Notes: generated from the letters alone by a model not told the origin. Positions 666 through 31,415 are shown, counted from the first letter of the stretch. The stretch is 64,000 nucleotides of DNA from a virus (IMGVR_UViG_3300023173_000014:6791-70790), one strand, 5' to 3'. Program-made: numbers and translations.

Positions 666-670
666 AGGAG

Positions 671-958: not shown

Positions 959-960
959 AC

Positions 961-981
961 AAGGGGCCTTAACGGCCCCTT
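961..981. terminator. bidirectional intrinsic terminator
   Basis: AAGGGGCC-TTAAC-GGCCCCTT between convergent genes, with A/T tracts on both sides. Confidence 0.85.
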
Positions 982-985
982 TCTT

Positions 986-1375
986 TTAAGTATTGTTGCG
1001 GCACCAACTTTCCGGCCGTCCTACTTCCCAGTCGATAGATTTACGACAGTGATCGGGATCTACGACATCCAACATTTCCCCCACAATAACGTCCAGGAAC
1101 AACCAGTTGAATACTGGAGGGTGTCCGTGGAATCGAGACTTACCCAAGCAACTGGAAATAGTTTCTCGGTGGTCATGGAAACGTAGAGCGTTACAGTACT
1201 TATCGTACGAAATCCAGATGTGGTAAGCACGCGTTGCTGCCCACTTACGCGTAGCTTTCGGGATACACAGTAACAGTAAACCGATACCCAGGACCGGTAG
1301 TAACAGTGTTCCCGCGATTACTGCCAATCCAATCAGAAAGGTAAGGATGGCGATACAAAATGCCTTAAGCGTCAT
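986..1375 (-). CDS. membrane protein of a type often found beside phage tail genes
   Basis: Start reassigned to MTLKAF (GAGGAG RBS). Hydrophobic N-terminus; ETISS..GK and LD.VDPDHC..SI motifs. Confidence 0.7.
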   Translation of the reverse strand: MTLKAFCIAILTFLIGLAVIAGTLLLPVLGIGLLLLCIPKATRKWAATRAYHIWISYDKYCNALRFHDHRETISSCLGKSRFHGHPPVFNWLFLDVIVGEMLDVVDPDHCRKSIDWEVGRPESWCRNNT

Positions 1376-1760
1376 AGGCAATCTCCTCTTCGTTAATGTG
1401 TTCTGGTTGGGTGAGTTTCTCCGCCTCTGCTCGCATCTCAAGGACCATAGCGTCGATCTCTTCTAACGGGGTAGGTAACGTACGCTCCTGTACCAAATTA
1501 CCTTCTTCATCGAATTGATCTAACATCTCGCGCAAGATGAAGAGTTCCTGCTTGCTCAGGAACCAGCTAGGAGAGACTGGCTCACCTTCAGCATCGGTAA
1601 AGCCTTCGGTACCACACAAGATAACGATCTCGAGCGGATGACCTGATGCTGTTACTTCGATTGGTTTAGGCGTAAGGAAATGGTGATTAGGTCGTGGGGT
1701 AACGGTGCCGGCCACGAATAAAGAGCACCATGCCCCTGCTTGACGTTTTGAAATACTCAT
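1365..1760 (-). CDS. hypothetical protein (possible tail-fibre-associated)
   Basis: ATG overlaps the TAA of the upstream gene (TAATG coupling). Confidence 0.7.
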   Translation of the reverse strand: MSISKRQAGAWCSLFVAGTVTPRPNHHFLTPKPIEVTASGHPLEIVILCGTEGFTDAEGEPVSPSWFLSKQELFILREMLDQFDEEGNLVQERTLPTPLEEIDAMVLEMRAEAEKLTQPEHINEEEIAYDA

Positions 1761-3166: not shown

Positions 3167-3441
3167 TAGTACTGTCCAATGCAGTAAGTGAAGGTTGCAC
3201 CCGTTGCGACAGGTACTAACTGAATTTCGGTGATCAACGGAGTGTTGAAAAGTCCACCTTGGTTTGCGGAGAGATCCCCATCTTCTAGTACAACGAATTC
3301 GTCCATACCCAAACACTTAACGCGAATTACGGCGTCAACAGAACAAGCAACAGATAAGCCACTGTAGTTGGGTGAGAGAGGTTTGGTTAAGTCACCTGTG
3401 TTTGTGCCTTGTTTTTGAGTTGTAAGGTTAATGTGGGCCAT
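3166..3441 (-). CDS. small beta-rich hypothetical protein, first gene of the 986-3441 cassette
   Basis: CAGGAG RBS; coupled to the next gene. Confidence 0.75.
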   Translation of the reverse strand: MAHINLTTQKQGTNTGDLTKPLSPNYSGLSVACSVDAVIRVKCLGMDEFVVLEDGDLSANQGGLFNTPLITEIQLVPVATGATFTYCIGQY

Positions 3442-3448
3442 AACAAAG

Positions 3449-3476
3449 CTCCTGTAGTTGAATTACAGGTACTTTA
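3449..3476 (-). promoter_or_regulatory. SD-occluding hairpin with an upstream -10-like TAAAGT
   Basis: Minus strand reads TAAAGT-A-CCTGTA-ATTCAAC-TACAGG-AG; the stem covers the CAGG of the SD. Confidence 0.45.
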
Positions 3477-3510
3477 ATGAACTAAGAAAAGATTATTGAG
3501 AAAAGGAAGG

Positions 3511-3526
3511 AGGCTCTTACGAGCCT
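3511..3526. terminator. intrinsic terminator
   Basis: AGGCTC-TTAC-GAGCCT followed by TTT on + and by a pyrimidine tract on -. Confidence 0.7.
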
Positions 3527-3576
3527 TTTAGGGAGTGCTTACGACAACAGATGTTGCGTTACACGTTGGAAAGATA

Positions 3577-3710
3577 TGTTTAGTAGTTGACTCTCTCCTT
3601 GGAGCAGGAAAATGGCTAAAACCTATAAAGAAGAAAGCCAACTACTAAACAGTCTTAAAGGGAGCTTGGCCGCTCATCAACTGCGGAGCAAGGCAGGCCT
3701 GAAAGACTGT
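3577..3710. ncRNA. putative structured RNA (two large stem-loops)
   Basis: Perfect 13-bp inverted repeat 3577-3589/3639-3651, plus an 8-bp inverted repeat 3649-3656/3703-3710 enclosing CCGC/GCGG and CTTG/CAAG stems. Confidence 0.4.
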
Positions 3711-3731
3711 ATTGAAAGAGTACTCCTATGA
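3612..3731 (+). CDS. putative 39-aa peptide MAKTYKEESQLLNSLKGSLAAHQLRSKAGLKDCIERVLL
   Basis: Hand-translated; GGAGCAGGA upstream of ATG; below the ORF-track size cutoff. Confidence 0.4.
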   Translation: MAKTYKEESQLLNSLKGSLAAHQLRSKAGLKDCIERVLL

Positions 3732-3974
3732 GACAGAAGTACAGGAATTTTTGCGTATTGGTGAATATCTCGTTGTCACGATTCTCCGGTTTACGACTTA
3801 CACCGGTATTACCTCCAAACCATTACCCTCCAATGTACCGAGCCTTTGGCGGTAGTCATGTACTCTAAGGTCTTTTTACGGCAGTTCACTGTAGTGATTG
3901 CTTACAGAGCAATAGGCTATCTCTTGCAGCATTCTACATTACCTGCCGGGAGTATATTCACGCACCGGGACTCT

Positions 3975-4157
3975 TTAATCAGCTATGACAGCTCCGATGC
4001 TGATATAGTTGTTTGCCCAATCAGAAGCGTACTGTTCAATGAGCTTGTCTCGTTCTTCTTCGTTACTACTTTCCCACTCTTCCTCGTCAATATCGATGAT
4101 GTCTTCTTGACGTGCGTTAGCGAATCCGATCGAGAGGGATACTTTAAGCTGGGGCAT
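3975..4157 (-). CDS. 60-aa acidic phage protein
   Basis: Start reassigned to MPQLKV (CAGGAGG RBS); DIDEEEW...DWANNYI pattern. Confidence 0.75.
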   Translation of the reverse strand: MPQLKVSLSIGFANARQEDIIDIDEEEWESSNEEERDKLIEQYASDWANNYISIGAVIAD

Positions 4158-4399
4158 GAAACCTCCTGTTGAGTGATTGAGGTGGCTGGGAGTGAAGCCA
4201 GCATACAAGCCCTTACCCTTAACCGGTGTAGGTAAGAGTTCAGACGGTATTCTCTAGGTCCGCGTCTTTCGGAACTCATTTCATGTACTTCGTATGTGAT
4301 CTGCATACAAAAGCCCAGGTCACCATCCTGGATTCACCTCAAAACTGGTTTAAATTCTTATTGGCTGATGCTTCTCTGTCTCGTGGTCTTTGAGCAATT

Positions 4400-4506
4400 C
4401 TGTGTACCTAAGCAGGGAATCGAACCCTGAACCTCTACTAACCGCTGCGGCCGCCATGTTGACCGACTTCTGCGGGGGTTTAAGGGGCCATGTCGTACCC
4501 TCAGAA
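4400..4506 (-). ncRNA. degenerate tRNA-like element 2 (canonical T-arm only)
   Basis: CAGGG-TTCGATT-CCCTG at 4429-4413; weak 6-bp acceptor-like pairing TCTGAG/CTTAGG; no CCA. Confidence 0.3.
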
Positions 4507-4530
4507 CAGAGAAGTATCACCAATAAGAAC

Positions 4531-4635
4531 TGGATGGTAACGGAGGAATCGAACCTCAGAATCAGTATGCGCCTACTGTTCACGCCCTAAAGCAACCAGC
4601 TAAAGCATTCCAGGACTGCTGACGTGACGTTACCA
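4531..4635 (-). ncRNA. 105-nt tRNA-like RNA with CCA end and a long hairpin in place of the D-arm
   Basis: Perfect acceptor TGGTAAC(G)/(C)GTTACCA, T73, CCA; T-arm GAGG-TTCGATT-CCTC; CAGTA-GGCGCA-TACTG arm; about 47-nt irregular hairpin. Confidence 0.65.
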
Positions 4636-4665
4636 ATATACTGCCCTACTTTATCGAGAGCATAA

Positions 4666-4688
4666 AAAACCCGGAGGGTTTCCGGGTT
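4666..4688 (-). terminator. intrinsic terminator (can alternatively fold as AAACCC-GGA-GGGTTT)
   Basis: Minus strand AACCCGGA-AACCC-TCCGGGTT-TTTT. Confidence 0.75.
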
Positions 4689-4719
4689 CTCTTGTTGGTA
4701 CCTGTGTTAACTAACGTAC

Positions 4720-4860
4720 CTAACCATATTCCATCTGTTCTGGGCGGTTGAGCAGCATACTGTTTTTCTCAAAAACAGGACCGAACAAGACAGATGGAAA
4801 GGTTAAGCATGTCTCCGCCTGGTTGCGTACAAATGCAACTTCGATGAGGAACTTGAACAT
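4720..4860 (-). CDS. 46-aa hypothetical protein MFKFLIEVAF...
   Basis: Hand-translated; AAGGAG RBS. Confidence 0.55.
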   Translation of the reverse strand: MFKFLIEVAFVRNQAETCLTFPSVLFGPVFEKNSMLLNRPEQMEYG

Positions 4861-4897
4861 GAACTCTCCTTTCAACATTTGGTGACCTTAACAAAGG

Positions 4898-5098
4898 TCA
4901 TTTTATTGTTTCTGGTTTTTTGTTCTTCTGGTACTTCCACCAGAGGTAATGCCCCAAGAGCGTCAGAGGCCAGAAGGTCAAACAGAAGTAGAAGACGAGA
5001 GAACGTCTTGCCTGGAAGAAATACACCACCCCTCCAAACCAGATAACGTAGAGCAGTAACAACGTTATGTGGAGGACGATACCTTGCTCAATTGTCAT
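4898..5098 (-). CDS. small membrane protein (2 TM)
   Basis: Two hydrophobic segments; ATGA overlap with the upstream gene. Confidence 0.75.
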   Translation of the reverse strand: MTIEQGIVLHITLLLLYVIWFGGVVYFFQARRSLVFYFCLTFWPLTLLGHYLWWKYQKNKKPETIK

Positions 5099-5436
5099 GG
5101 TTCTTGGGATAGCTGCGGAATCGTGGGGTAACGTGGGTAAGGCTCTTCTTTACAGCGGGTAAGTCCGTGAAAACGGTGGAGGTACACGCCTGTAGGGCAC
5201 TGCAACAAGATAGGTAAAGCGTTTGTACCAACGATACATTTAGTGTATCCGTCGGTCTGGCTACCAGAGCATGACAGGCGTGTGCGCTGGATGTTGTGCG
5301 TTTCAATGAACGCTTCTGCAGCCTCCATAGCACGAGATTCAACTGCTGAAGGGGCGTTGTACAGGCCGACGTAAACACCTGCAATGGATGGTACTGTGAT
5401 GACAAGCATTACCAGTACGGTCATAAGGGAAGGCAA
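5095..5436 (-). CDS. membrane-anchored exported protein with Cys pairs
   Basis: N-terminal TM segment; AAGGAG RBS before TTG; CSG..DGY.KC...CPTG motif. Confidence 0.7.
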   Translation of the reverse strand: MPSLMTVLVMLVITVPSIAGVYVGLYNAPSAVESRAMEAAEAFIETHNIQRTRLSCSGSQTDGYTKCIVGTNALPILLQCPTGVYLHRFHGLTRCKEEPYPRYPTIPQLSQEP

Positions 5437-5489
5437 AGTGATCTCCTTTTATTGTGTTCAGTTTTTAGGGTGAAGCGTCGGAGACGCCT

Positions 5490-5864
5490 CTAGTGCAATG
5501 TGGTAGATGGCTGGTGGATGAACTTACCTTCCAGATCAAGAGGACGTTCTTCATCCTCTACTACGTCCTGTACTTCTTCCTGGTGATGTTCCAAAGCACG
5601 CTGAACTACAAGGTTTACTGTTCTTTCTGATGTCAGGGTGTCCCAGGTTTCTTGTTCGATGTCTTCGATGTATCCACCATCCTCTTGTACTACTGGGTAA
5701 GAGAAGGTAGCCAATCCTACTGTCCCTGATGGGACGCCTCGTACATCTTGTAAGAAGAATGAATACACCACTTCTGCAGTGCCTTCGTCAGAGTCAGAAG
5801 CAGGTACGCGAGTGACTCCAACCTGGGCACCACAAGCCTCTACTACTGTGAAACGGTCAGTCAT
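5490..5864 (-). CDS. acidic hypothetical protein
   Basis: Start reassigned to MTDRF (GGAGG RBS). Confidence 0.75.
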   Translation of the reverse strand: MTDRFTVVEACGAQVGVTRVPASDSDEGTAEVVYSFFLQDVRGVPSGTVGLATFSYPVVQEDGGYIEDIEQETWDTLTSERTVNLVVQRALEHHQEEVQDVVEDEERPLDLEGKFIHQPSTTLH

Positions 5865-6035
5865 AACTGCCTCCAAAGTTATCCACATTACTGCGGGAAA
5901 GATGTTGTTTGTTTTGTATACAGGAGAGAGAAGAAAAGTTCGTAATAACTGACGTAAGTTGTTGATTCTTGGTAGGGCGTTTCAGGAGGTAGTATTACAG
6001 AACTTTCTTCTGGGACCCGCATGGTTACGGGATCA

Positions 6036-6089
6036 AGCAGCGGATTGAAAATCCGCGTGTCGGTGGTTCGATTCCGCCTCTGGGCACCA
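6036..6089 (+). other. attP core: 3' 54 nt of a tRNA-Phe(GAA) gene
   Basis: AGCAGCGGATTGAAAATCCGCGTGTCGGTGGTTCGATTCCGCCTCTGGGCACCA contains anticodon arm (GAA), T-arm, acceptor 3' strand and CCA. The 5' half is absent. It lies 126 bp past the integrase stop. Confidence 0.9.
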
Positions 6090-6215
6090 CTTATTACAAG
6101 GGTTGTGGGGTTAGTGACCAATCCGGCAATCCAAGATTCGGAATACTCTTTCGGAATATAAAATCCACAAGAATTTACTGCTTTCCGCTCACAATGTGAG
6201 CAGTCTTGTGGATTT

Positions 6216-7322
6216 TTACTTAGTCGCCTTCCCTTTCTCAAGTTTCAGTCGATAGCGTTCTGCCATCTCCCGCGTCTTGTGTTTCAAGTCTTTACCATCT
6301 GTACCTGCCTTCTTCTTCAAGTCGTGATTCCAGAAGTTCTTCACGCCCGTAACACGCATCATGTTGTAACGTGCTTTGTTGATGGCAGACTGCGTAATGC
6401 GTTGACCTCGTGTGTTCTGTACGATCGGAGTCTGGGAAGGTTCCCTTCGATCACCTGGTTTGTGCAGAGCGGTGGCGAAATCGATAGCAAACTGCAAGTC
6501 TTCTGAAATTTCGACCAACTCTCCCCGAGAACCCTTTCCTCGAATACAGCGTAGGTACTTCTTACCGTCTTCGTACAGGATGTCTGACATGTTGAGGTTC
6601 CAGACCTCATGGACACGTAACCCACACAGGTAAGCGATCTGCCAGAACGGGTAGACCCATTTCTGCCGGCTTTGGAGTGCGGCTTGGAGTAGCGCATCGT
6701 AATCTACGTCTTCGGTATAGACCTGACGAATGTTCTCAGGGAACTTCATAGTCTGTTCTGCGGGATTACCCTGCATCCCTTCAACGTACTGGGTAACCCA
6801 CTTGAAGTAAGTGATAAGGCAGCTACGGTGCCGGTTAGCGACGATCGGTTTGCCTTCTGTTTCGATGACTTTACCGTTGGCTTTGACAACTTTCTGCGGA
6901 GTGTTCCAGTAATCCAGGTACTTACGTACATGGGTTGGACGTACTTCTTGTGGGTACATGGCACCGAAGACGTGACGTAGCCCATTGTGAGTCGCTCGAC
7001 TGTTCAGCTTGTCAGGATCTACGACAATGTTGATGTAAGTCTCGTACTGCTTGTCCTTTAACCGTGCAAACTCAGGGGAAGCCAGGTATTGATCAAACCA
7101 GTAACTGTTATTCTTCGGTTGGAGTTGTTCTGCAAGATGGTCCTCGTAAGCCTTGTAGAGAGCCGCTTTCACAGCAGCATCTTCGATGATCTTCCCGTTG
7201 ACCTTCTTAAACTTAAGTAAGGTCGTAGCTTTCGCTTTCAAAGGGCGATAAACATAACCAGTTTTATCGCGGTACACGCGTTCCGGCATCCACCGGTCAG
7301 CAGGTTTACGTGGACGTCCCAT
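6216..7322 (-). CDS. int: tyrosine recombinase / phage integrase
   Basis: MGRPRK N-terminus; GLR (Arg I), KG (Lys), HDLK box, H and ERY (Tyr). Confidence 0.93.
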   Translation of the reverse strand: MGRPRKPADRWMPERVYRDKTGYVYRPLKAKATTLLKFKKVNGKIIEDAAVKAALYKAYEDHLAEQLQPKNNSYWFDQYLASPEFARLKDKQYETYINIVVDPDKLNSRATHNGLRHVFGAMYPQEVRPTHVRKYLDYWNTPQKVVKANGKVIETEGKPIVANRHRSCLITYFKWVTQYVEGMQGNPAEQTMKFPENIRQVYTEDVDYDALLQAALQSRQKWVYPFWQIAYLCGLRVHEVWNLNMSDILYEDGKKYLRCIRGKGSRGELVEISEDLQFAIDFATALHKPGDRREPSQTPIVQNTRGQRITQSAINKARYNMMRVTGVKNFWNHDLKKKAGTDGKDLKHKTREMAERYRLKLEKGKATK

Positions 7323-17508: not shown

Positions 17509-18042
17509 TCAGACCATCAACAGGTTAGTCATCGCCCGTTGCTCCAACATAGCAATGGATTTCTGGCTTTGTGAAAGCATGGAGTCGATGAGTTCTTGAG
17601 AAAGTTCCGCGTTACGGCATGGACAGTCTTGTTTCAACTTATCCAAGATCGGATGCAGTAACGTAGGGAACAACTTGTAGTAGTCCTCAAAGCCGTTTGA
17701 GACGTTGAGGACCTGGTTAACGTATCCCAAGACGAAAGGTAATTCGTCGTTATTTATCCGGTCTTTTTCTTTCATCAAAGCCAGATAACGAGGCTCCAAA
17801 GAAGGATGTAGAGAGTTGATTTTGGAGGCAGGGACGCGTGAATTTTTGTCGTACTGCGAGTGGTATTTGAACTCACCACGGTACTTCATTAAGCGTTGTT
17901 GATTCTGGTTTAGGCCTGAATTTTCGATGATGAGTGCGTCCATTTGGTTACTGAACTTCTCATCAACTTGTTCGTACAAGGCCGCGTAGATTGAATCTTT
18001 GATGTGGGCCTTAGTTTCAGGTCCATAAACCATGTCGCTCAT
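17509..18042 (-). CDS. conserved N4-like protein between helicase and polymerase (gp38-like)
   Basis: Synteny; 177-aa ORF. Confidence 0.65.
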   Translation of the reverse strand: MSDMVYGPETKAHIKDSIYAALYEQVDEKFSNQMDALIIENSGLNQNQQRLMKYRGEFKYHSQYDKNSRVPASKINSLHPSLEPRYLALMKEKDRINNDELPFVLGYVNQVLNVSNGFEDYYKLFPTLLHPILDKLKQDCPCRNAELSQELIDSMLSQSQKSIAMLEQRAMTNLLMV

Positions 18043-19297: not shown

Positions 19298-20392
19298 TTA
19301 GTCAGTGGGCGGATCGAAGTGGATAGTTCGACCCCAAGGTGCTTTATAGCTCGGGTTCTCGTTGATGATCCAAACCCAGTTAGAGGAGTCACGGCGCTTC
19401 GGTTCGTAGAAGTAACCGTCCGTAAACACCACAACAATGTTGGGTTTGTGCTCCGCTACCCAATCACATACAGGCTGTACTCGGGTCCCGCCGCCACCGT
19501 TGAATTCGACCTTATCGAAGTCTGTCTTCGTACGGACTTGATCCACGCCTACCAGACCAGATGAGAACTGAATCAGAGTCATCTTGCTTGGTTTCATTTT
19601 CGACATGATGCCATAGGCTTCATTAACGAAATGCTGGAACTGTTGCTTAGACACAGAACCTGAAACATCAATCACCACAGTGATCTGTTCGAGCTTCTCT
19701 GAATGACGTGAAGGCAGGATCGTAGGGAGGAAACGACGGTTAGGTCGGGATAAGGTGAAATCCCCTTTCATCGTTCCATTTAGGTACTTACGCAACAACG
19801 TAAACCAAGGAAGTTTAGGGTTGGTCGCTTTCTCTACCATCCGTCTCACTTCACTTGGGATGTAGGCGTCGGTACCACCTTTTGTCTGGTTCTGTGCACG
19901 GATCGCCGCTTTGGTGATCGCTTGACTGATGTCTTTAGCGTCTTTGGCGTTCGGTGCTTCAATCAGATCTTCGTGGTCTGGTTTCGCGTCGTCAGGCAGA
20001 TCGTTGTAGATCTCATCTGCAGACAGTCCAGCGTACTTATGTTCATACAAGCCACCGGCCGGCATGGTCATACCAATCTTGATGAGTTCCGCGTTGATTG
20101 CGTAGTCACACGCTGCATTCCAGCGACGCATATCACGTCCTGCCAGTCGCAGCATGTGTTGCAACACAACGTGGAAAGTTTCGTGCATTAACAGGAAGTC
20201 ACGTTCAGAAGGCCCCAACGACTCAAAGAAGTTGGGATTGATGAGCAAGTTCTTACCGTTTGTAGCTGCAGTTGGTACTTCTTCGGTGATGCGCCAGTTC
20301 AGACTGAACAGCACACCAGCAAAGAATTTCAACTTAGGGTTTGCCAGGACGCTCACCTTAGAACGCATTACGGCTTTTTCGATGGGCGTCAT
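19298..20392 (-). CDS. DUF2201-type metallopeptidase-like + VWA protein
   Basis: TAATNG, HETFH (HExxH), WN.ACDY.IN; MIDAS DVSGS, GGGT, FTDG. Confidence 0.9.
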   Translation of the reverse strand: MTPIEKAVMRSKVSVLANPKLKFFAGVLFSLNWRITEEVPTAATNGKNLLINPNFFESLGPSERDFLLMHETFHVVLQHMLRLAGRDMRRWNAACDYAINAELIKIGMTMPAGGLYEHKYAGLSADEIYNDLPDDAKPDHEDLIEAPNAKDAKDISQAITKAAIRAQNQTKGGTDAYIPSEVRRMVEKATNPKLPWFTLLRKYLNGTMKGDFTLSRPNRRFLPTILPSRHSEKLEQITVVIDVSGSVSKQQFQHFVNEAYGIMSKMKPSKMTLIQFSSGLVGVDQVRTKTDFDKVEFNGGGGTRVQPVCDWVAEHKPNIVVVFTDGYFYEPKRRDSSNWVWIINENPSYKAPWGRTIHFDPPTD

Positions 20393-20401
20393 AACGATTC
20401 C

Positions 20402-21457
20402 TTAACCGAGGATGTGAGTATTGTTAAGTTTCCAAGTAGTGATTGCTTGGTGTTGGGCCAGATCTTTGTTACGAGAACAAATCTCACGGAAGGTAGTGAT
20501 CGTGAACTCGATCGGCATACGTGCAATGAACTTCACCATGTCGGTCAGGTTCTTGTCATTTGCACCCGCTCCCAGAGCACCGGTAAGCGCGTAAAGCACA
20601 GAAGGTTCATCAGGGACTTTCAGTGTTTCTGGATTGGCCAGGATGTCCTTCAACTGAGGAAGTGATTGGTGAACGTCCAGGAACGCATCAAACTCAGTTG
20701 CAGCACCTTGACCAATCATGCCACCCAGAGCGATACGATCAGCGTCAGTAAGGCCTGTCTTGTTCTTCATGTACTTGTGAACGAATTCCCAGGTACGTGG
20801 GCAAGGGTAAGTAACGTCAGGGCTGTCTGGATCGAACTTATGCAGAAGCTCAGGTTTGAACGACAGGAAGGACGTAACACGGGTGTCGACGTTGCTGTTA
20901 CGTGCCCATTCCAACCATTCATTCAGATCAACGTGTGTCTTCAGGTGAACCAAACGTGACTGAAGTGCTGAAGAGAGTTCTTCAGTAATGGCATTGTCGT
21001 CGTCCAGGTTACCTGCACACACCATCACTACGTTTTTGTGGATGTGGTGTTGACCTACCATACGGTCCAGAACCAGTTTGTAAGCAGCACGCTGTACTGA
21101 ACGGTCAGCAGAGTTGAACTCGTCCAGGAACAGCAACCACCCTGTTTTATTCGCTGGCTTTTCATCTGAAGCCAGAGGAATGTAGCTTGGTGGTGCGTAG
21201 GTAGAACGTCCGCCTTCAGTGGAAGGGAAACCCTGAAGGTCAGTTGGATCACACTGACTCAGACGAAGGTCAATCAGTTCCAGGTTATGTTTGTTGGCGA
21301 AGGCGTGCACGATGGCTGACTTACCCAAACCAGGACTACCTTTAATGAAAGGTACCAGGCCTGCATGAGCGCACTGGTCGACGATGTTGGTGGCAGTAGC
21401 CAAACTAGCAGAAGGAGCACCTACAAACTGCCCTTCGATGTTTTCGTTATCTGACAT
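20402..21457 (-). CDS. MoxR-type AAA+ ATPase
   Basis: GSPGLGKS, RLSQCDPTDLQG, LFLDEF, AGN, ALQSRL, PCPRTWE. Confidence 0.9.
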   Translation of the reverse strand: MSDNENIEGQFVGAPSASLATATNIVDQCAHAGLVPFIKGSPGLGKSAIVHAFANKHNLELIDLRLSQCDPTDLQGFPSTEGGRSTYAPPSYIPLASDEKPANKTGWLLFLDEFNSADRSVQRAAYKLVLDRMVGQHHIHKNVVMVCAGNLDDDNAITEELSSALQSRLVHLKTHVDLNEWLEWARNSNVDTRVTSFLSFKPELLHKFDPDSPDVTYPCPRTWEFVHKYMKNKTGLTDADRIALGGMIGQGAATEFDAFLDVHQSLPQLKDILANPETLKVPDEPSVLYALTGALGAGANDKNLTDMVKFIARMPIEFTITTFREICSRNKDLAQHQAITTWKLNNTHILG

Positions 21458-21469
21458 GGAATGTCCTTG

Positions 21470-21970
21470 TTAAAATGATTCGATGAGCTTCGTCATCTTG
21501 TTACGTTTTGCATACTCTTCCTGGTTTTCAAAGGAAGGTACTGCGGTGATGTTCTTGGCGTATTCGACGCGGGCCTTTAACTCTGCAATAACGTCAGGAT
21601 CATTGAAGTCTTGATCGTAGAACGTCGTCCAAGGTACTTGGAAATCCTGCATAACGGCCTGTTTCTCAACAGAGTTGCCTTTATCGTCGAATACGTAGGA
21701 ATAGCGTGAAAGAGGTGGATCACCTCGAAGAAGTGCACCTTCAGCAAAAGATTCCAGCATGAAAGGGATCGACTCCTTTCCAAAGGCGTCAATAGTCTCC
21801 CTCCAGTGCTCCGGACCCGAATTAGCAAGCGTGATTGCTTGAACCTGACCGATTGCACCATCCCCATCTTTGATAGGGCTTTGCAGTACAGGTGCGATGT
21901 CAGAGGAATCAAGGATCTCTTTCGCTTTCTCCCAACCAGCCGGAAAGGTTAAGCGAGTTTCAGTCCCCAT
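21470..21970 (-). CDS. hypothetical protein with the shared C-terminal motif (KMTKLI)
   Basis: ORF coupled to the ClpX-like gene. Confidence 0.75.
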   Translation of the reverse strand: MGTETRLTFPAGWEKAKEILDSSDIAPVLQSPIKDGDGAIGQVQAITLANSGPEHWRETIDAFGKESIPFMLESFAEGALLRGDPPLSRYSYVFDDKGNSVEKQAVMQDFQVPWTTFYDQDFNDPDVIAELKARVEYAKNITAVPSFENQEEYAKRNKMTKLIESF

Positions 21971-22775
21971 TCTGGTTACCCCATGCCATAGGGTTAAATG
22001 GCACTACTTCAGCAGGTGCTTTATCGAAACCACCTTCAATGAAGTACTGGTGAACCAAGCGGATCAGAAGACGAACACCTACCGTGTTGGAGGCGTACTC
22101 TTCTTTCACCTTCTCCATAATGGCGCTGAGAGCGTCTTCACGAGGAGAATCAGGGAACACACGTAAGTAGTTTTCCAGAAGTTTCATGTCCTTCAGGATG
22201 GCGTACATTACGTCCAGAGAGGCTTTCTTCAGGTTGTAAACCAGACTGACACGACCCAGGAATTCTGTCTTAACTCCCAGTTCAGCCAGACGGTCTGTGG
22301 TGATGTTGTCTTCACCATTGAAAGCACCTGCGAAGATAAACAGAAGGTTCTCTGCCGGTACTTCGTGGTACTTACCGTAATCACCAAAGACAGTAGCGTT
22401 ACCGCCATCAAGGATCTTCAGAAATTCGTTCTGAACACCATTGGTGCTTTCGTGTGCCAGGTCGCAATTGGCATTACCACTGATGAACAGCTTGTCGAAC
22501 TCATCCACAAATACGATTGCAGGTTGGTTCTGAACGTTGAAGATACCAGTCAGTGCCTTAGACAGACTGTTACCGGATAAACCTTCTTTGGTCAGGTTGG
22601 CTGCATTCACTGAGATCAGCGGCAGATCTTTCTCTTTTGCCAGGGTCTCAATGTTGTGGGTCTTACTGCTGCCGGAAGGACCGGTTAAGAAAAAGTGAGG
22701 ACGGATCTCACCGGAAGTGTTTTTAAAGATTTCCAGTATCTGACGGATACTGTCTACAGATTGTGTGTTGTCCAT
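21960..22775 (-). CDS. ClpX/HslU-like AAA+ ATPase without ZBD or IGF loop
   Basis: GPSGSSKT, LTKEG, VFVDEFDK, GVQ..LK, FIFAGAF, EFLGR, GVR.L. Confidence 0.85.
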   Translation of the reverse strand: MDNTQSVDSIRQILEIFKNTSGEIRPHFFLTGPSGSSKTHNIETLAKEKDLPLISVNAANLTKEGLSGNSLSKALTGIFNVQNQPAIVFVDEFDKLFISGNANCDLAHESTNGVQNEFLKILDGGNATVFGDYGKYHEVPAENLLFIFAGAFNGEDNITTDRLAELGVKTEFLGRVSLVYNLKKASLDVMYAILKDMKLLENYLRVFPDSPREDALSAIMEKVKEEYASNTVGVRLLIRLVHQYFIEGGFDKAPAEVVPFNPMAWGNQNGD

Positions 22776-22805
22776 TTTGCTCTCGTTCTTGGTTAAGATT
22801 CGAGA

Positions 22806-22821
22806 GGTGACCGGAGGTCAC
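22806..22821 (-). promoter_or_regulatory. C-GGA-G hairpin element (putative middle promoter) upstream of the ClpX-like gene
   Basis: GTGACC-GGA-GGTCAC, identical to 14234-14249. Confidence 0.55.
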
Positions 22822-23201
22822 ATGGTGATGAGGTTACCTAGCTGCTGCACTTTCCAACGTTCGTATTGCTCAGTCCAGTTTGTAGATTCTTTAAAAGGGT
22901 TCCGTTCACCAGACATTGAGTATTCATACCTGCGCTTACCTTGGGAGGTTAAAGTAAACCGTATGAATAAAGTCTTCCAGGTATTAGACAACCCTGGGAT
23001 GTGTTCTGTTGGGTAGATCAAGATTGCCGGAAGCTCAAGTGCCTCTAAGAACTCCATAAGAGACACAGGCACCGGTTTGTGAATATCGAAAGTCTCTCCT
23101 GATGCTCTACGCTCAAGGGTAATCCAATGTCTTTTAATTGGTTCGACGTTTTGTAGAGCTTCTTTACAGGCTCCACAAATGAAGACTTGCACTACTTCCA
23201 T
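22818..23201 (-). CDS. hypothetical protein with N-terminal CxxC and the shared C-terminal motif
   Basis: Ends WTEQYERWKVQQLGNLITM. Confidence 0.8.
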   Translation of the reverse strand: MEVVQVFICGACKEALQNVEPIKRHWITLERRASGETFDIHKPVPVSLMEFLEALELPAILIYPTEHIPGLSNTWKTLFIRFTLTSQGKRRYEYSMSGERNPFKESTNWTEQYERWKVQQLGNLITM

Positions 23202-23269
23202 AACTTATAGCCCTAGTAGTTTTAATATTCTTAATAGCATACGGGCACGTGACTCCGACGTTATGTACA

Positions 23270-23572
23270 TCAATCCTTGGGATCAGAAAGCCTAAAATCA
23301 GCAGTAGCGTAAGAACCAAGATGCAGCTCCAAGAAATCAATCTCTTCCGCGTACTGCTTTTCGTCGGTCATCCATGCGATCACCTGGCTTGTGTTCAGGC
23401 GGGGTTGCCTACCCTGTTCAGAGTGCTCCGCAAGGTATTCTTCCTGCATGACCTTGGTATCTATCTCTATGAGGGCTTTGCACACTGTCAGCGTGCAGTA
23501 ATCGCTATATTCCTCGGCAGTAACAGTAAATACAGCGTCTTTAGGTATAACTTTTATTTCTCTGAACATCAC
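23270..23572 (-). CDS. acidic hypothetical protein
   Basis: GGAGAG RBS; 100-aa ORF. Confidence 0.7.
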   Translation of the reverse strand: MMFREIKVIPKDAVFTVTAEEYSDYCTLTVCKALIEIDTKVMQEEYLAEHSEQGRQPRLNTSQVIAWMTDEKQYAEEIDFLELHLGSYATADFRLSDPKD

Positions 23573-23670
23573 TCTCTCCGAACTAAATCTGGTGTTATTT
23601 AGGTGTTTTTAATGTGCGCCTTCTAAGGTAGGGGTAGTTTAAGACGTCGCTTACGCTCTGGCCAAAAGGT

Positions 23671-23964
23671 TTATATGGTTTGTAGTTGATGTTCGTAATA
23701 CCACGAAACTTCCCCAACCCCATCGATGTCAAGGCAGTAGTTTTTCACATTGTCCCCTCCATAAGCATGGGCATAGGTGTACTTCACAGTGGCTTCCTTT
23801 CCGCTTGGAAAATGCGACATAGATGTACCGAGATCGTCAATAATCTTTACCCTTGTTCCGGGCTGGAACTTTTGTCCCTTCGGTACAGGCTTGTTTTTTA
23901 CATTCTCTATACCTTGTTGGTATATTGAGTTTGCCTGATCTGCGCGTTCTTTGTAGCTTGTCAT
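23671..23964 (-). CDS. SH3/KOW-like small protein
   Basis: KFQPGTRVKI...G.EATV...YCL.....SWY.E.QL; AGGAG RBS. Confidence 0.7.
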   Translation of the reverse strand: MTSYKERADQANSIYQQGIENVKNKPVPKGQKFQPGTRVKIIDDLGTSMSHFPSGKEATVKYTYAHAYGGDNVKNYCLDIDGVGEVSWYYEHQLQTI

Positions 23965-24014
23965 TTCTTTTCTCCTGTTAAAGCGTCATATAGCCAGTAG
24001 GTGTGAGGTATATC

Positions 24015-24380
24015 TCACAACCCTAATAACTTGTTCATTTTATAGATCTTCCAACGTTCCCTCTGCACTTCCCAGTTTATGTGTTGTAGATCTTGGTTAG
24101 GTCCACTACCCCGTAATGTAAGGTACCCACTTTCATTTAACAGATTCGACCCTGCGTAAGAACCTAACGTACCGGTGTGGACTACGTAAGGGAAATTAAG
24201 GTTAAGGTAGACCGTACTGGACTGCACCGGCATGCAAGTGATGAAGCAACAAGAGAGTTCAGTACCGGGAACTTCATACGACCAAGGTGTCCAGCTATAC
24301 AAGTGACCTTCTAGTAGAGACGCTACCTCACTTTCAGGGAGTCCTGAGACAATCCAGACGTTTCTATACTGCTTAGACAT
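24015..24380 (-). CDS. hypothetical protein with the shared C-terminal motif
   Basis: Ends WEVQRERWKIYKMNKLLGL. Confidence 0.8.
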   Translation of the reverse strand: MSKQYRNVWIVSGLPESEVASLLEGHLYSWTPWSYEVPGTELSCCFITCMPVQSSTVYLNLNFPYVVHTGTLGSYAGSNLLNESGYLTLRGSGPNQDLQHINWEVQRERWKIYKMNKLLGL

Positions 24381-24729
24381 TAAGCAGCTCCGTGAGTTTA
24401 TTCACTTGGAATGCCTTCACTTGTGCCGGAGCATCTGCCCAAAACTTAGCCTCGAAGTGTTCATCAGGCTCAAAGAAGGCTGTACCTTTTTGACGGCGCA
24501 CGAACCCGTCAAGCTGATCATGCCAGAAGTACCACCCACTTTTACCATCCCATGTGTAGATGCCTGGTACTTGGTTATCAATAAGGCGATTGAAAGCATT
24601 AGGCGTAGAGGCAGGCTCTATTTGCCAGTGATAACGTTCACGTCCCAGACGTTTGGTAGTGGTATACGGAACATCTGCAAAAGAAGGATGTGCATCTTCT
24701 GGTTTCACAGGGGATATGAAGTAAATCAT
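24373..24729 (-). CDS. hypothetical protein with the shared C-terminal motif
   Basis: Ends QVKAFQVNKLTELLNV. Confidence 0.8.
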   Translation of the reverse strand: MIYFISPVKPEDAHPSFADVPYTTTKRLGRERYHWQIEPASTPNAFNRLIDNQVPGIYTWDGKSGWYFWHDQLDGFVRRQKGTAFFEPDEHFEAKFWADAPAQVKAFQVNKLTELLNV

Positions 24730-24732
24730 GGT

Positions 24733-25083
24733 TTATTCTTCCAGTAGTTGAGTCATGCGGTATAACTTCCACCGCTCATATTGTGTTGCCCACCATTCAT
24801 CCGATTGCTGCCAACCAGCCTCTTCCTCGTAATGGTACAAAGCACCTCCTTCACTCAAAACCATGAATGAGTAAACACCGCCACCATGATTTTGAACCAG
24901 TTCCCCTGGAAAGTTAGGTGTCAGGAAGCTGATGCAGGTGATGTAGTGTTTGAAGAGGGTCCCGTCTTTCAGTGGTTTCTGGTTCAGATTCTTTATCGAA
25001 TAGCTTCGTTCGACGGCATGAAAAGGCTTAGACATTCCTGTTATCTGTTCTACAGACAGAGGTGTTATCAGGAAGTACTCCAT
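24733..25083 (-). CDS. hypothetical protein with the shared C-terminal motif
   Basis: Ends WATQYERWKLYRMTQLLEE. Confidence 0.8.
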   Translation of the reverse strand: MEYFLITPLSVEQITGMSKPFHAVERSYSIKNLNQKPLKDGTLFKHYITCISFLTPNFPGELVQNHGGGVYSFMVLSEGGALYHYEEEAGWQQSDEWWATQYERWKLYRMTQLLEE

Positions 25084-25091
25084 AGCTCACC

Positions 25092-25274
25092 TCACTGAAT
25101 GTTTTTCTTGGCTTCTTCCAGCACAGTATTTCGGTACATCATCAGTAAAGGATGAAGATCTGAGGCACTGACACCGAGTTGAGCTTCAATGATTTGTTCG
25201 GCTGCTTCTGTGGAATGTGCCGTCTCGAACATGGGATTAGGTTGGGATGGGGACTGTTGTGGGTTGTGTTGCAT
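25092..25274 (-). CDS. small hypothetical protein
   Basis: 60-aa ORF directly upstream of the tagged gene run. Confidence 0.65.
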   Translation of the reverse strand: MQHNPQQSPSQPNPMFETAHSTEAAEQIIEAQLGVSASDLHPLLMMYRNTVLEEAKKNIQ

Positions 25275-25389
25275 AGGCTGTCTTCTTCCAGTTTCCAGGC
25301 TGTCTGTCTACAGGCCTTACGTTATAGGGTCCATATAGTTGATAAAGACTAAATCTGGAAAGTTAGTATGTAGGTTTACCTTAAAAAGA

Positions 25390-25410
25390 AACCACCCATA
25401 TAGGGTGGCT
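25390..25410 (-). terminator. intrinsic terminator after RNAP II subunit 2
   Basis: CCACCC-TATAT-GGGTGG followed by TTTCTTTTT on minus. Confidence 0.75.
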
Positions 25411-25435
25411 TTAAAAGGTGTGATGATCTACAGCA

Positions 25436-25450
25436 AGGTACGGAGTACCT
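25436..25450 (-). promoter_or_regulatory. C-GGA-G hairpin element
   Basis: AGGTAC-GGA-GTACCT, 3 nt after the RNAP subunit stop codon. Confidence 0.45.
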
Positions 25451-25453
25451 CTG

Positions 25454-26704
25454 TCAATTGATTGGGTAGTTAGCTACTTCAATGTATTGCGTGAGGTCCA
25501 TATCTCTCTGGATTGTGGTAGGTACTCCATTCAACTGGGTCAGGATGTCTTCCATAATCCGTCCCTGATTGATCTGTACCATGATTTGGTTGTAGTGCTT
25601 ACGTAAGTGGTTCATGTTGTTTGGATGACACTTGAACTCATCGTGTACCGATAGGATCGGGAACGGTTTGTGCTCTAGTGACTGCATGACCATGCAATAC
25701 ATAGCCTCCAATAAAGCATCTGGAAGGTACTTTACCGACTCTTCATCGATTAAAGAGATGAAAGCCAGATCAGCAATACCAGATTCTTCGTACCGTGTGA
25801 GCATAGTACTGAAGTCATCTTCTACTTCTGACTGTACCGAAGCGACTTCCACATTAGCGAAGGTCCGACGTAACATTTCGTCTTGCATCAAAGACTTAAC
25901 AGCAAGGAACCGCACTGGATCGTAATTACAACGACGATCCAGAGACCGGAGCAGCCAAGCATCCACGCTGTGCACTACATTAGCAGCGTTAGAGACACTG
26001 TAGTCTTGTGGTTCATTGGTTTTGAAGGCGTACGTAAAGGTGGAATGAGCAAGCTCATCTACCTCAATACGCTTCTCCTCTGTAACCATAACGGGAATGT
26101 AGACATAGTGATTGTCCGGCATTCTCCAGGAATGCGAGAGCGCGTCTGGGTTCCAAGAGGCAACCAGATCATTCAGTAAGTGCATAGCACCCGGAGCCAC
26201 TTCCCACATGGATTTGTAGAACTCGACAAGTTCAGATGTATCCCTGCCGAACAACTTCTCAGGTTCTTTCTTTGATCCGTATAGCACCGTCATTACAGCC
26301 TTCTTGACGTCATCACGGAGGAATCCTAAAGAACCTCCCAGGTAATGCGCCATGAACTCTGCAACAGTACGGTAAGCGTCAGAGCGTACGTCTTGCTCAA
26401 TCAACCCTGTCGCTTTGGCACCAGAGTAACAACCTGTCGCCGCAGACATGATCTGCATCCCAGAACAGACAGCATCAAAACCAACGAGATGACCGGTGGC
26501 GATACCCTGCTGAGCTTTACGGATAGTCATTACCGTTTTCTTGAACAGAGGTAACGTCTTCTTCTTGCAGCTCTCATACATTTCTTCCAGTTTGTTTAGG
26601 TGAGTATTAGCCCAATCTAAACGCTCTTCATAACGTAACCCATCGAGACCATAGTGATTAGCTACGTCGATGAGCAGGTATTCCCAACCGGTAAATTCTT
26701 TCAT
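25454..26704 (-). CDS. RNA polymerase II subunit 2 (N4 gp16-like)
   Basis: FTGWEYLLIDVAN..GLD; GFDAVCSGMQ (motif A); R.DVKKAVMT..YG (motif B); SVHDEF (motif C). Confidence 0.93.
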   Translation of the reverse strand: MKEFTGWEYLLIDVANHYGLDGLRYEERLDWANTHLNKLEEMYESCKKKTLPLFKKTVMTIRKAQQGIATGHLVGFDAVCSGMQIMSAATGCYSGAKATGLIEQDVRSDAYRTVAEFMAHYLGGSLGFLRDDVKKAVMTVLYGSKKEPEKLFGRDTSELVEFYKSMWEVAPGAMHLLNDLVASWNPDALSHSWRMPDNHYVYIPVMVTEEKRIEVDELAHSTFTYAFKTNEPQDYSVSNAANVVHSVDAWLLRSLDRRCNYDPVRFLAVKSLMQDEMLRRTFANVEVASVQSEVEDDFSTMLTRYEESGIADLAFISLIDEESVKYLPDALLEAMYCMVMQSLEHKPFPILSVHDEFKCHPNNMNHLRKHYNQIMVQINQGRIMEDILTQLNGVPTTIQRDMDLTQYIEVANYPIN

Positions 26705-26991
26705 TGGTCGATCTCCAGTAATGAGTCCATCTTTCGTAAGTTGATGGCTTTATCGAGTTGTCTGATGCTTTCTTGAAGTGCTTCTATCTCTGCTGTTGAG
26801 AGACGGTCAGCGTTACGGAGGTAGGTGTTTTGTAAGTTTTGTCTTGCGGCTTCTAAGCTACTCTCTACAGTGAAAGGACTTTCCCAGTCACCCAAAAGAC
26901 GTTTTCTAAAGGTATCTAGGTTTGTAGTATGTAGTAGGGTGCTGCCAGTGAGACCTACAGTAGAGAAAGCGTCTGCTTTATCATCTTTCAC
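26701..26991 (-). CDS. hypothetical protein with the shared C-terminal motif
   Basis: Ends LDKAINLRKMDSLLEIDQ. Confidence 0.75.
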   Translation of the reverse strand: MKDDKADAFSTVGLTGSTLLHTTNLDTFRKRLLGDWESPFTVESSLEAARQNLQNTYLRNADRLSTAEIEALQESIRQLDKAINLRKMDSLLEIDQ

Positions 26992-27257
26992 GGGTCCTCC
27001 AATAGTTGCCCTAGTTTCAGGTAATTAAGTCGTTTGTTGATCCAGCCCCACTCTGTGGTGTCCTCACCAGGATGAGGGTTACCCGGACGTATAAAAGACC
27101 AGTACAGGGACGCCCTCACTTCTGACAGTTGCTGCTCTGTGAATGTTTTGTAGATTTCTCTAGGAGGTTCAGGGAACCCCTTCATATCGATATTTCGAGC
27201 GTCTACTTCACAGGTGAAGCAACAGTAGGTGATGTTCCCGTGCTTACAATGGGACAT
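26988..27257 (-). CDS. hypothetical protein (Cys/His N-terminus) with the shared C-terminal motif
   Basis: Ends INKRLNYLKLGQLLEDP. Confidence 0.75.
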   Translation of the reverse strand: MSHCKHGNITYCCFTCEVDARNIDMKGFPEPPREIYKTFTEQQLSEVRASLYWSFIRPGNPHPGEDTTEWGWINKRLNYLKLGQLLEDP

Positions 27258-27441
27258 TGAGATGAGCCACTAAATTACGAGCACCAAACCCTTTCACTTT
27301 GGTTTGACGATCGAACCACTTACCGGTGGTAGGCCAGAAGTCAATATACCCTTCGTTACCTTCCACCACATAGTGATGTTCAGACTTGGCTTCAAAGACA
27401 ATGCTCTTTTCTTTCAGTAGCGCGAGTGCTGCTTCTTTCAT
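27244..27441 (-). CDS. small hypothetical protein
   Basis: IDFWPTTGKW motif; coupled to neighbours. Confidence 0.75.
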   Translation of the reverse strand: MKEAALALLKEKSIVFEAKSEHHYVVEGNEGYIDFWPTTGKWFDRQTKVKGFGARNLVAHLNVPL

Positions 27442-27703: not shown

Positions 27704-28624
27704 TTAAATTCCAGGTACGCCGGTAACCACTTCGGTATCGGCAAGATCAACACAGGCTTTCTTGTAAGCCGTGCCTTGTGGGTTGATGTGATAGCCCTGA
27801 ACGTACATACGTCCACGTTTATCGTATTTGTTGAGCATGTAGAACCGATTGCCGGCAAGGGCCATGCGTCGGTACACCATCTTGCTGGTGGACACATGTT
27901 GCTGCCAGCGTTGCTGCGCCTCTACGGTCTCAGGTTCGTTCTTTGGGGTCTCAGGCACACTCATCACGAAGTCCATGTCCAAGGACAAAGGAACAGCGTT
28001 ACGAGCGTTAATAACATCCAGAGAAGCGCACTGACTGTGCTGGTTGTACTTACGGAGAATCACTGAGTCCTTCACAGTCAGGTACCCTGATTGGAAGTTT
28101 GTAGTGATTGGTTCAGGCTCACAGATCATCGGTGGCAGATACTCTGCTTGTAAGATGTTCTGTACTAACTCTTCAGATAACGTGAAGTTGCACTGGACCA
28201 TCAGAGACCCTTGAGCACCATTTTTGAAGATGTCGAAAGCATCTGTCTCACAGAGAACTGCGAGGATCTCAGCCGCAGTAGTAACGGCCGGCACACGATC
28301 AGACCAACGTAATGACTCTGCGAATTTACCGGCGATGTTCACCAGAGTTTCTGGGTACTGGCAATGAGCCACACAGACGAAAGCACTCACAACTAAATGC
28401 TCGAATTGCTTTGGTCGGATGGCATCTAACCGTTGGTTTTTGGAATCGTAATAATCCTTTACATGCCACTGCTGAAGCAGAGCAATACCTTGTGAGATCT
28501 TGCCTGTAAGAACAGGACTCTCACGTATTTCCTTTTCAATATCTTGTTCAATGAAGTGTTTCCCCAGGCTACATTCCACTTGGATTTGCGCCTGAGTGGG
28601 TGAAAGACGGACGTGCGAATTCAT
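27704..28624 (-). CDS. RNA polymerase II subunit 1 (N4 gp15-like)
   Basis: LPPMICEP, SVIL, LD.IN..N..PLSLD, KYDKRGR.Y.QGYHINPQG..Y.KA. Confidence 0.92.
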   Translation of the reverse strand: MNSHVRLSPTQAQIQVECSLGKHFIEQDIEKEIRESPVLTGKISQGIALLQQWHVKDYYDSKNQRLDAIRPKQFEHLVVSAFVCVAHCQYPETLVNIAGKFAESLRWSDRVPAVTTAAEILAVLCETDAFDIFKNGAQGSLMVQCNFTLSEELVQNILQAEYLPPMICEPEPITTNFQSGYLTVKDSVILRKYNQHSQCASLDVINARNAVPLSLDMDFVMSVPETPKNEPETVEAQQRWQQHVSTSKMVYRRMALAGNRFYMLNKYDKRGRMYVQGYHINPQGTAYKKACVDLADTEVVTGVPGI

Positions 28625-30890: not shown

Positions 30891-31415
30891 ATGACAACTG
30901 AACATTACATCGGTACTAAGCAAGTAGTTGCTACTGAAATGACACGCGCACAGTACAACCATTACCGTGGTTGGGAACTTCCTACTAACGAAGACGGTAA
31001 CGACGAAGGTTATCTTGTTGAGTACTTGGATGGTGGTGAAGCCAATCATCCTGATCATAAGGGTTACGTTAGTTGGTCACCTAAAGACGTGTTCCAACGT
31101 GCATACCAAAGTAACGGTGCAATGACATTTGGTCATGCGTTGGAGCTTGCTAAAGACGGGCACAAGGTTGCGCGTGCAGGTTGGAACGGTAAGAACATGT
31201 TTGTGGTGTACATGCCTGGTATGTTGTTAGCCCTCGCTAATTCAACAGAAGGTGGTGTGAAAGTGAATGCACGTACCTCCAAGTTTATCGGTGAAGATAA
31301 GGCACTGGAAGTGTTGCCGTACTACGCGATGTATACCGCTGATGGTAAGTGGTTACCTGGCTGGTCGGCTACACAGTCTGATATGAACGCTACTGACTGG
31401 TACGTTGTTAAGTAA
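30891..31415 (+). CDS. two-domain protein with C-terminal DUF2829 (Tad2-like) domain
   Basis: MTFGHALE...GHKVARAGWNGKNMFV...PY..M.TADGK..PGW.ATQSDM.ATDW; N-terminal YIGTK.V.A...GYLVEY...SWSPKDVF..AY domain. Confidence 0.8.
   Translation: MTTEHYIGTKQVVATEMTRAQYNHYRGWELPTNEDGNDEGYLVEYLDGGEANHPDHKGYVSWSPKDVFQRAYQSNGAMTFGHALELAKDGHKVARAGWNGKNMFVVYMPGMLLALANSTEGGVKVNARTSKFIGEDKALEVLPYYAMYTADGKWLPGWSATQSDMNATDWYVVK

Follow-up and report, generated by a model that had tools for sequence, protein, structure and literature searches.

Adaptors of the SspB type carry a C-terminal XB peptide which docks on the zinc-binding N-domain of ClpX, and in the best-known phage case the clients of the T4 sliding clamp (gp45), namely gp43, gp33 and gp55, have a similar hydrophobic C-terminal tail. 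Pairs of a MoxR AAA+ ATPase and a von Willebrand factor A (VWA) protein are represented by RavA-ViaA, NorQ-NorD and CbbQ-CbbO (PMC9976466, PMC4660213). The present work deals with seven small genes of a marine N4-like phage, numbered tag1 to tag7 (Table 1), whose products end in a similar tail and which lie close to genes for a ClpX-like ATPase, a MoxR ATPase and a VWA protein. They are found in a stretch of 64,000 nucleotides (IMGVR_UViG_3300023173_000014:6791-70790), hereafter the window, which is part of a 70.8-kilobase (kb) IMG/VR virus record. The original prediction had taken their products for unrelated proteins with a shared C-terminal tag, which bind different host targets and deliver them, in the manner of SspB, to a hub formed by these three neighbours. 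The analysis points instead, with moderate confidence, to the tail being a helix conserved at the C-terminus of a single phage protein superfamily which has undergone a lineage-specific tandem expansion, and not a peptide grafted onto unrelated proteins. In this sense, the locus is an ordinary expansion of paralogs with uneven divergence and not a demonstrated adaptor system.

Compared with SspB and ClpX, the locus likewise has a short C-terminal element on different bodies and an AAA+ unfoldase-like gene next door, but the phage ATPase starts 31 residues before its Walker A motif and has no zinc-binding domain, and the phage tail is a predicted 17-residue helix of a folded domain, whereas that of SspB is a flexible LRVVK-like peptide. 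With the T4 clients it has in common several proteins with a similar C-terminal peptide, which in T4 reach one ring-shaped hub; however, the T4 clients are unrelated and their peptide is extended and stands at the very end, while here at least five carriers appear to be paralogs, the element is helical with up to 16 residues after it, and no clamp gene was seen. As in RavA-ViaA, NorQ-NorD and CbbQ-CbbO, the gene of a MoxR-type ATPase is followed by that of a VWA protein bearing the MIDAS-like motif DxSGS; nevertheless, no third component with the tag1 fold or tail has been described for those pairs, the phage VWA protein adds an HExxH domain, and many N4-like phages have the pair without any member of the tag1 family. 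Finally, the tandem paralogous ORFan families of phage early and middle regions show the same arrays, variable copy number and rapid divergence at the N-terminus, and are likewise missing from isolated phages, the differences being that one 17-residue C-terminal helix is here strikingly kept and that the array appears to originate in a widespread single-copy family.

The shared C-terminal motif

All seven open reading frames (ORFs) are present on the minus strand, with the C-termini first quoted for them. The pattern [KRQ][ML]..L[LI].{2,4}$ is matched by 7 of the 82 called genes, against a mean of 0.06 and a maximum of 2 in 3000 shuffles, and by 0 of the 273 off-frame ORFs in the window. In fact, the core motif occurs 14 times anywhere in 20,084 residues, and 7 of these occurrences are C-terminal. 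Among the six core codons, those for Leu, Lys and Thr vary among all copies, and because codons vary so freely from one copy to another, the signal lies at the level of the protein and not of the DNA, which agrees with the earlier proposal of protein-level selection instead of a DNA repeat. The observation is real and statistically solid.

An artefact, whether of chance, of a DNA repeat, or of Shine-Dalgarno sequences and a promoter hairpin overlapping the gene ends, has some ground in the flanks of the motif: the GGAG (Shine-Dalgarno) of the next gene encodes L-E after the core in tag6 (CTG GAG) and tag7 (TTG GAG GAC), fixing these flanking residues, and also coincides with ACG GAG (Thr-Glu) within the core of tag4, while a hairpin stem runs into the end of tag2. 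Such overlaps colour the flanks and do not create the core motif. Moreover, the core codons differ throughout, four tails are free of any overlapping signal, the observed count is far above that of the shuffles, and the tail is kept both by orthologues and by 114 of the 120 family members from other phages, so an artefact is highly improbable and this explanation is largely refuted.

The remaining 6.8 kb of the genome (G000 1-7200) contains no further copy of the tag. Two other ends of the window were also tried as copies: that of the 177-aa gene (aa, amino acids), AMTNLLMV, gives no score against the tail profile, and that of a 65-aa ORF, which resembles tag4 only (z score 7.1) but ranks 233 in a leave-one-out profile test, is doubtful. 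The end of the MoxR protein, said to resemble the tag loosely, turned out to be part of the conserved W...ELF end of the MoxR family, and it has no score with the tail profile.

The tag1 family and its tandem relatives

A profile built from six sequences of the family to which tag1 belongs retrieves 236 clusters of 147-188 aa (as a rule about 150-165 aa) from uncultured N4-like phages, many of them on contigs of ~70 kb, and jackhmmer seeded with tag1 alone recovers members of five lineages (L055-L059) with E values of 1e-56 to 2e-36. The C-terminal 17-mer (WDNQxEYGKxYRxxQLI) is the best-conserved stretch of this family. In 114 of 120 members the tail follows the consensus W-[DE]-N-Q-[VE]-E-Y-G-K-x-Y-R-[TAMV]-[KR]-Q-L-I and is followed by 1-16 residues, conservation among these 114 tails being 100% at Q4 and L16, 99% at K9 and 97% at W1. 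The tail of tag1 itself, F-E-N-Q-E-E-Y-A-K-R-N-K-M-T-K-L-I, is recognised (E 3.1e-8) by a tail profile built without any sequence of the window. The family has no Pfam match, and tblastn of a typical member against 50,697 isolated-phage records gave no match either. Typical members match phrog_31558, to which no function is attached, weakly and over the full length (E 1.3e-5 to 5e-4), whereas the tag1 of the window has no match to it.

An AlphaFold2 (AF2) model of tag1, built on a 123-row alignment, reached a predicted local distance difference test score (pLDDT) of 86.9 and a predicted template-modelling score (pTM) of 0.80. It consists of a ferredoxin-like beta-alpha-beta-beta-alpha-beta core followed by helices 125-142 and 150-165; the second of these is the "tag", and it falls in blocks with mean pLDDT of 94 and 91. 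The tail helix is thus confidently modelled as belonging to a compact domain, being its last helix and standing 1-16 residues from the end in the family, and the notion of a free tag did not hold up. In the ESM Atlas, a cluster of mostly viral proteins aligns to residues 1-165 of tag1 at a template-modelling score of 0.70; a search of solved structures with the model gave just generic ferredoxin-like, ACT, PII, Cas2 and SAM-lyase matches (Z no higher than 6.4), and one of BFVD gave weak matches to YubB-like and uncharacterised viral proteins. These fold matches give no function. One family member (P0142) is annotated in a 284-kb contig of Stutzerimonas stutzeri, and on a related 70.8-kb phage contig an integrase gene (L058 100-1143) adjoins the family gene; both observations are consistent with temperate N4-like phages.

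Tags 2-5 form a second group beside the tag1 family, here called A1-like, and sequence comparison shows them to be paralogs of one another. In addition to the pairwise matches listed in Table 1, leave-one-out tail profiles place tag3 (E 7.6e-5) and tag4 (E 1.5e-3) at rank 1, and the N-terminal part of tag4 is like that of tag5 (z 3.5). Once aligned, the A1-like proteins have in common a mid-protein strand with an invariant Pro, plus the tail; tag4 also has this hydrophobic-Pro strand of the group alignment (A10, tags 2-5 kind). Two relatives reached through the ClpX-like protein, L049 and L050 (68% and 62% identical in that protein), contain two and three further A1-like genes, respectively, with ends which include WGNQTELYRKYKINRLLGI, WGTQAEQYRQFKLNQLLYL and WKQQAERYRQKQVMGLLHLS, and each has two copies of the tag1 family with the same tail, all of these genes being in tandem.

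Neither the region nor tag5 had a match when searched with megablast and tblastn against the 50,697 phage records; a profile of tags 2, 3 and 5 searched against 1.8 billion representatives found their own orthologues only, plus three large proteins to which just the N-terminal or middle part of the profile aligned; and a scan of IMG/VR returned pattern matches and no relative. Furthermore, 32 N4-like metagenome loci and two IMG/VR loci, reached through RNAPII at 35-53% identity, contained no tagged genes and no hits of the tail profile, the background of the motif in these loci being 4 in 589. A sequence search of the PDB with A1 gave nothing significant, and the ESM Atlas model of tag5 was poor.

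The two groups may be linked through more than the last helix. Their consensus tails agree at W1, Q4, E6, K/R9, Y/F11, K/R12, L16 and I/L17, and hhalign of the tag1-family alignment (A7) against A10 gave P 1.9e-4 and a probability of 47% over 63 columns, a match which takes in the Pro-containing strand, an RFT strand and the tail but leaves out the penultimate helix. These results suggest homology beyond the tail without proving it. On these comparisons we read the five proteins, tag1 to tag5, as diverged tandem paralogs in which the last helix is the least eroded part, so that at least five of the seven carriers, which the original prediction had called unrelated, would have a common origin.

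Several results weigh against this reading. The similarity of tag1 to the A1-like group outside the tail is one profile-profile hit, with the 47% probability just given, and jackhmmer from tag1 recruits no A1-like proteins. With a tail profile made from the tag1 family of other phages, tag5 alone of the A1-like group is detected (E 0.035, rank 2 among 631 ORFs), tag3 coming no higher than rank 15. The packing of the tail helix in tag1 is judged from pLDDT and pTM only, and AF2 of the A1-like group, which reached a pLDDT of 37.5 and was unusable except for a nominal C-terminal helix, reveals no fold in common with tag1. As to the last two tags, hhalign of tag6 against A10 was not significant, and that of tag7 brought the tails into register but with P 0.13.

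The way in which these genes have changed could be followed by comparing non-synonymous (dN) and synonymous (dS) divergence between the window and the TARA contig L010. Protein identity is 99% for the ClpX-like ATPase (dN 0.006, dS 0.15) and 98% for MoxR (dN 0.011, dS 0.26), and falls to 87% for tag1 (dN 0.072, dS 0.59) and to 56% for tag2 (dN 0.373, dS saturated in the N-terminal part). In both tag1 and tag2 constraint is stronger over the last 22 codons than elsewhere in the gene, dN/dS in tag1 being 0.019/0.294 for the tail and 0.081/0.643 for the N-terminal part. From these values, the tagged genes evolve or recombine faster than their neighbours, with the tail held. The same is seen in the homologues P0004, L049 and L050, where the tail is kept while the N-terminal parts diverge, in line with the selection on the tail originally proposed; in P0004, the tag2 orthologue has 55% overall identity and a preserved tail.

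In the case of tag2 the divergence is that of a mosaic (22818-23201 in the window against 458-835 in L010): the proportion of synonymous differences (pS) is 0.80 in the N-terminal 103 codons, compared with a dS of 0.15 in the flanking ClpX-like gene, and the gene upstream has likewise been replaced, a 100-aa ORF corresponding to a 73-aa one. The point at which DNA identity between the window and L010 switches from ~65% to ~98% is a perfect hairpin, GGTGACC-TCC-GGTCACC (22795-22822, minus strand), which starts within the last codons of tag2, lies 30 nucleotides (nt) upstream of the start of the ClpX-like gene, is kept in L010 and L011, and recalls in its shape N4-type hairpin promoters or a terminator. 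An alternative to descent from a common ancestor is, in this context, that the helix-coding end was captured by recombination, which would fit the mosaic boundary situated immediately upstream of the tail of tag2.

Tags 6 and 7 have little more in common with the others than the six-residue core. Of the two, tag7 fits a motif derived from tags 1-5 alone (P 0.0014 by shuffles), both together fit the motif as originally formulated (P 0.0016 among the other 77 genes), and their tails are alike (z 5.35). It may be that they are copies eroded further than any of the others, or else that they carry this core independently. The ORF of tag7, with an N-terminus of the form CxxxxxxxCCxxC, is uncalled in the public annotation of identical contigs, which leaves a gap of 253 nt at that place (L051 5532-5785).

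If the paralogs do descend from one superfamily, the founding form would have been a protein of ~155 aa present in a subset of uncultured N4-like phages, with a ferredoxin-like beta-alpha-beta core and two helices, the last of them carrying W-D-N-Q-x-E-Y-G-K-x-Y-R-x-x-Q-L-I. Several tandem duplications in the lineage of the window and in two intermediate relatives would have been followed by the shortening of the copies and by divergence of their N-terminal parts past pairwise recognition, with the last helix held by purifying selection; since that helix was kept, it is what the eye picks up. The helix, we infer, may be kept for domain folding, for oligomerisation or for one common partner, and the variable surfaces might meet different ligands or targets in each paralog, as would be the case for fast-evolving middle-gene proteins of host takeover or counter-defence. 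In any case, the 236 clusters define a widespread and unnamed protein family of uncultured N4-like phages, which one lineage has apparently amplified into a tandem array with the last helix as its only recognisable common part, and a single 17-residue element provides a concrete handle on the ORFan middle genes of these phages.

Relation to the ClpX-like, MoxR and VWA genes

The analogy with SspB depended on the ClpX-like ATPase. This 271-aa protein has its Walker A motif (GPSGSSKT) at residues 32-39, with no Cys cluster before it, and Pfam finds no ClpX zinc-finger family in it; the zinc-binding N-domain is absent, and the analogy is not supported. About 15 residues separate GAFNG from EFLGR, at a place where the ClpX of E. 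coli has a ClpP-docking loop of about 55 residues, and no clpP was seen among the called ORFs of the window, whose annotation was not complete. The gene is an accessory one, and its family is very large and unusually uniform, being 57-60% identical across Schitoviridae, Queuovirinae and other, unrelated phages, with matches in 218 phage records and in 2043 clusters at E 1e-10 or better; in these phages the gene is often found in replication modules, and none of the 32 loci obtained by way of RNAPII has it. Alteromonas phage R7M carries it between the RNase H and thymidylate synthase genes, a position which points to a function linked to replication rather than to proteolysis.

As regards the other two neighbours, H70, E71, H74, D242, S244, G245 and S246 of the VWA protein are invariant in 13 homologues (alignment A9), and to judge from sequence the window has a MoxR ATPase next to a putative MIDAS-bearing VWA protein, as in the described pairs. 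In each of two independent N4-like phages (L057 5103-6999, and phage Pollock, L012 5579-7367), an HNH/NUMOD4 homing endonuclease gene interrupts MoxR. In the first of these, a TARA N4-like contig, a CsrA-family gene (58 aa, L057 7583-7759) is also present between the tag1-family and VWA genes.

A modified form of the docking proposal is that the shared helix brings paralogs with different N-terminal surfaces to MoxR and the VWA-metallopeptidase, or to the ClpX-like ATPase. In eight of eight lineages (the window, L049, L050 and L055-L059), a family gene does lie in the interval which separates the VWA gene from the ClpX-like or MoxR gene, adjoining MoxR in the window, L050, L055 and L057 and being 0-1 gene away from VWA in L056-L059. 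Moreover, tag1 is translationally coupled to the ClpX-like gene, whose end its start overlaps by 11 nt, constraint in these fast-evolving proteins is highest in the tail, and MoxR ATPases are known to act through VWA partners (PMC9976466, PMC4660213). Nevertheless, synteny is weak evidence, since the stretch from MoxR to VWA is a hot spot of insertion and takes up many unrelated inserts, amounting to ten genes in L056. In at least 11 N4-like loci, MoxR and/or VWA genes are present without a family member, the four phages examined with the ClpX-like gene (Pollock, 12VC501, R7M and S0112) carry it without tags, and L057 and L058 have the family with no ClpX-like gene within 7 kb. These comparative data leave a dedicated tag-hub system unsupported, while allowing the family to work with MoxR-VWA; with a ClpX-like protein devoid of the zinc-binding domain and a helix modelled within a compact domain, docking on these neighbours seems distinctly unlikely. 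What stood of the original prediction as a whole was the shared element at the C-terminus and its protein-level nature; the unrelated carriers, the free tag, the SspB analogy and the coupling to the hub found no support.

A complex prediction of MoxR, the VWA protein and tag1 had a score of 0.00, which speaks neither for nor against binding. Known C-terminal signals were considered as well. An ssrA-like C-terminal degron was rejected, as the distance from LL to the end is not fixed, amounting to 1-16 residues in the family and to 12 in one L050 paralog; the beta-clamp motif (QLxLF, QLxLxL) and the PIP-box seem not to apply either, since the M/L-x-x-L-L spacing misfits and there is no Gln three residues before.

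The helix might, on the other hand, bind one common hub protein of the host, the paralogs being variants of a single host-takeover or counter-defence effector in an arms race. In agreement with this, the genes belong to the middle-gene region, with RNAPII subunit genes on one side and replication genes on the other; the distribution of the family is that of an accessory, lineage-restricted one, with copy numbers that differ between close lineages; and the tag2 allele has been swapped for a distant one, although the flanks of the genomes compared have 98-99% protein identity. However, the tail matches no bacterial docking motif that could be named, and a purely structural helix fits the same data, so that a host hub is also unlikely. 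A further and decidedly improbable proposal has the last helix as a common docking handle by which diversifying paralogs capture different proteins of the host, such as those of defence, and present them to the MoxR/VWA-metallopeptidase machine. If true, this would be the first client or adaptor family for the enigmatic conserved MoxR-VWA pair of N4-like phages; more generally, the family could bear on the role of that pair, carried by many of these phages.

Gene order and neighbouring genes

As in N4-like phages, the window encodes a virion RNA polymerase of 3411 aa, together with a split T7-like RNAPII and a DNA polymerase A. The tagged genes are confined to one 6-kb stretch of the middle-gene region and include two arrays (24015-25083 and 26701-27257). 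In the order of transcription, the RNAPII small subunit gene is followed by 3-4 small ORFs, tag7, tag6 and the RNAPII large subunit gene; then come a 60-aa ORF, tag5, tag4, tag3, two small ORFs, tag2, the ClpX-like ATPase and tag1, and after tag1 the MoxR ATPase, the VWA-metallopeptidase, a helicase, the 177-aa gene and the DNA polymerase. The coordinates are collected in Table 1.

Table 1. Tagged genes of the window, their neighbours and the other features considered
Feature	Coordinates	Strand	Description
Look-alike, non-member	17509..18042	-	conserved N4-like 177-aa gene; distant homologues with varied ends
HExxH metallopeptidase-like + VWA (N4 gp25-like)	19298..20392	-	DUF2201_N + DUF2201, Pfam E 8.6e-36 and 3.5e-23
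MoxR-type AAA+ ATPase (N4 gp24-like)	20402..21457	-	AAA_5 24.6 bits (cut-off 22); phrog_1297 E 3.4e-119; conserved in related N4-like loci
tag1	21470..21970	-	166 aa; divergent member of large N4-like phage family; tail FENQEEYAKRNKMTKLI+ESF
ClpX/HslU-like AAA+ ATPase	21960..22775	-	271 aa; Pfam AAA_2 and AAA only
tag2	22818..23201	-	127 aa, A1-like; tail WTEQYERWKVQQLGNLI+TM; blastp to tag5 E 7e-4
tag3	24015..24380	-	121 aa, A1-like; tail WEVQRERWKIYKMNKLL+GL; blastp to tag5 E 5e-5
tag4	24373..24729	-	118 aa, diverged A1-like; tail FWADAPAQVKAFQVNKLTELL+NV
tag5	24733..25083	-	116 aa, A1-like; tail WWATQYERWKLYRMTQLL+EE
60-aa ORF	25092..25274	-	just downstream of RNAPII large subunit
RNAPII large subunit	25454..26704		
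tag6	26701..26991	-	96 aa; core KMDSLL+EIDQ alone shared; original motif matched
tag7	26988..27257	-	89 aa, Cys-rich; core KLGQLL+EDP, Trp 16 residues upstream
Doubtful copy	27244..27441	-	65-aa ORF; end like the tail of tag4 alone
RNAPII small subunit	27704..28624		
Tad2-like gene	30891..31415	+	first gene of the late arm

Two of the neighbours deserve mention in their own right. The 60-aa ORF encodes a small conserved protein with homologues in L049, L050 and five distant N4-like loci (E 8e-13 to 5e-4), and in L049 and L050 the homologue stands immediately before the tagged array. For the first gene of the late arm, the precomputed Pfam annotation of an identical contig (L051 1361-1885) lists a Tad2-like (PF11195) match.

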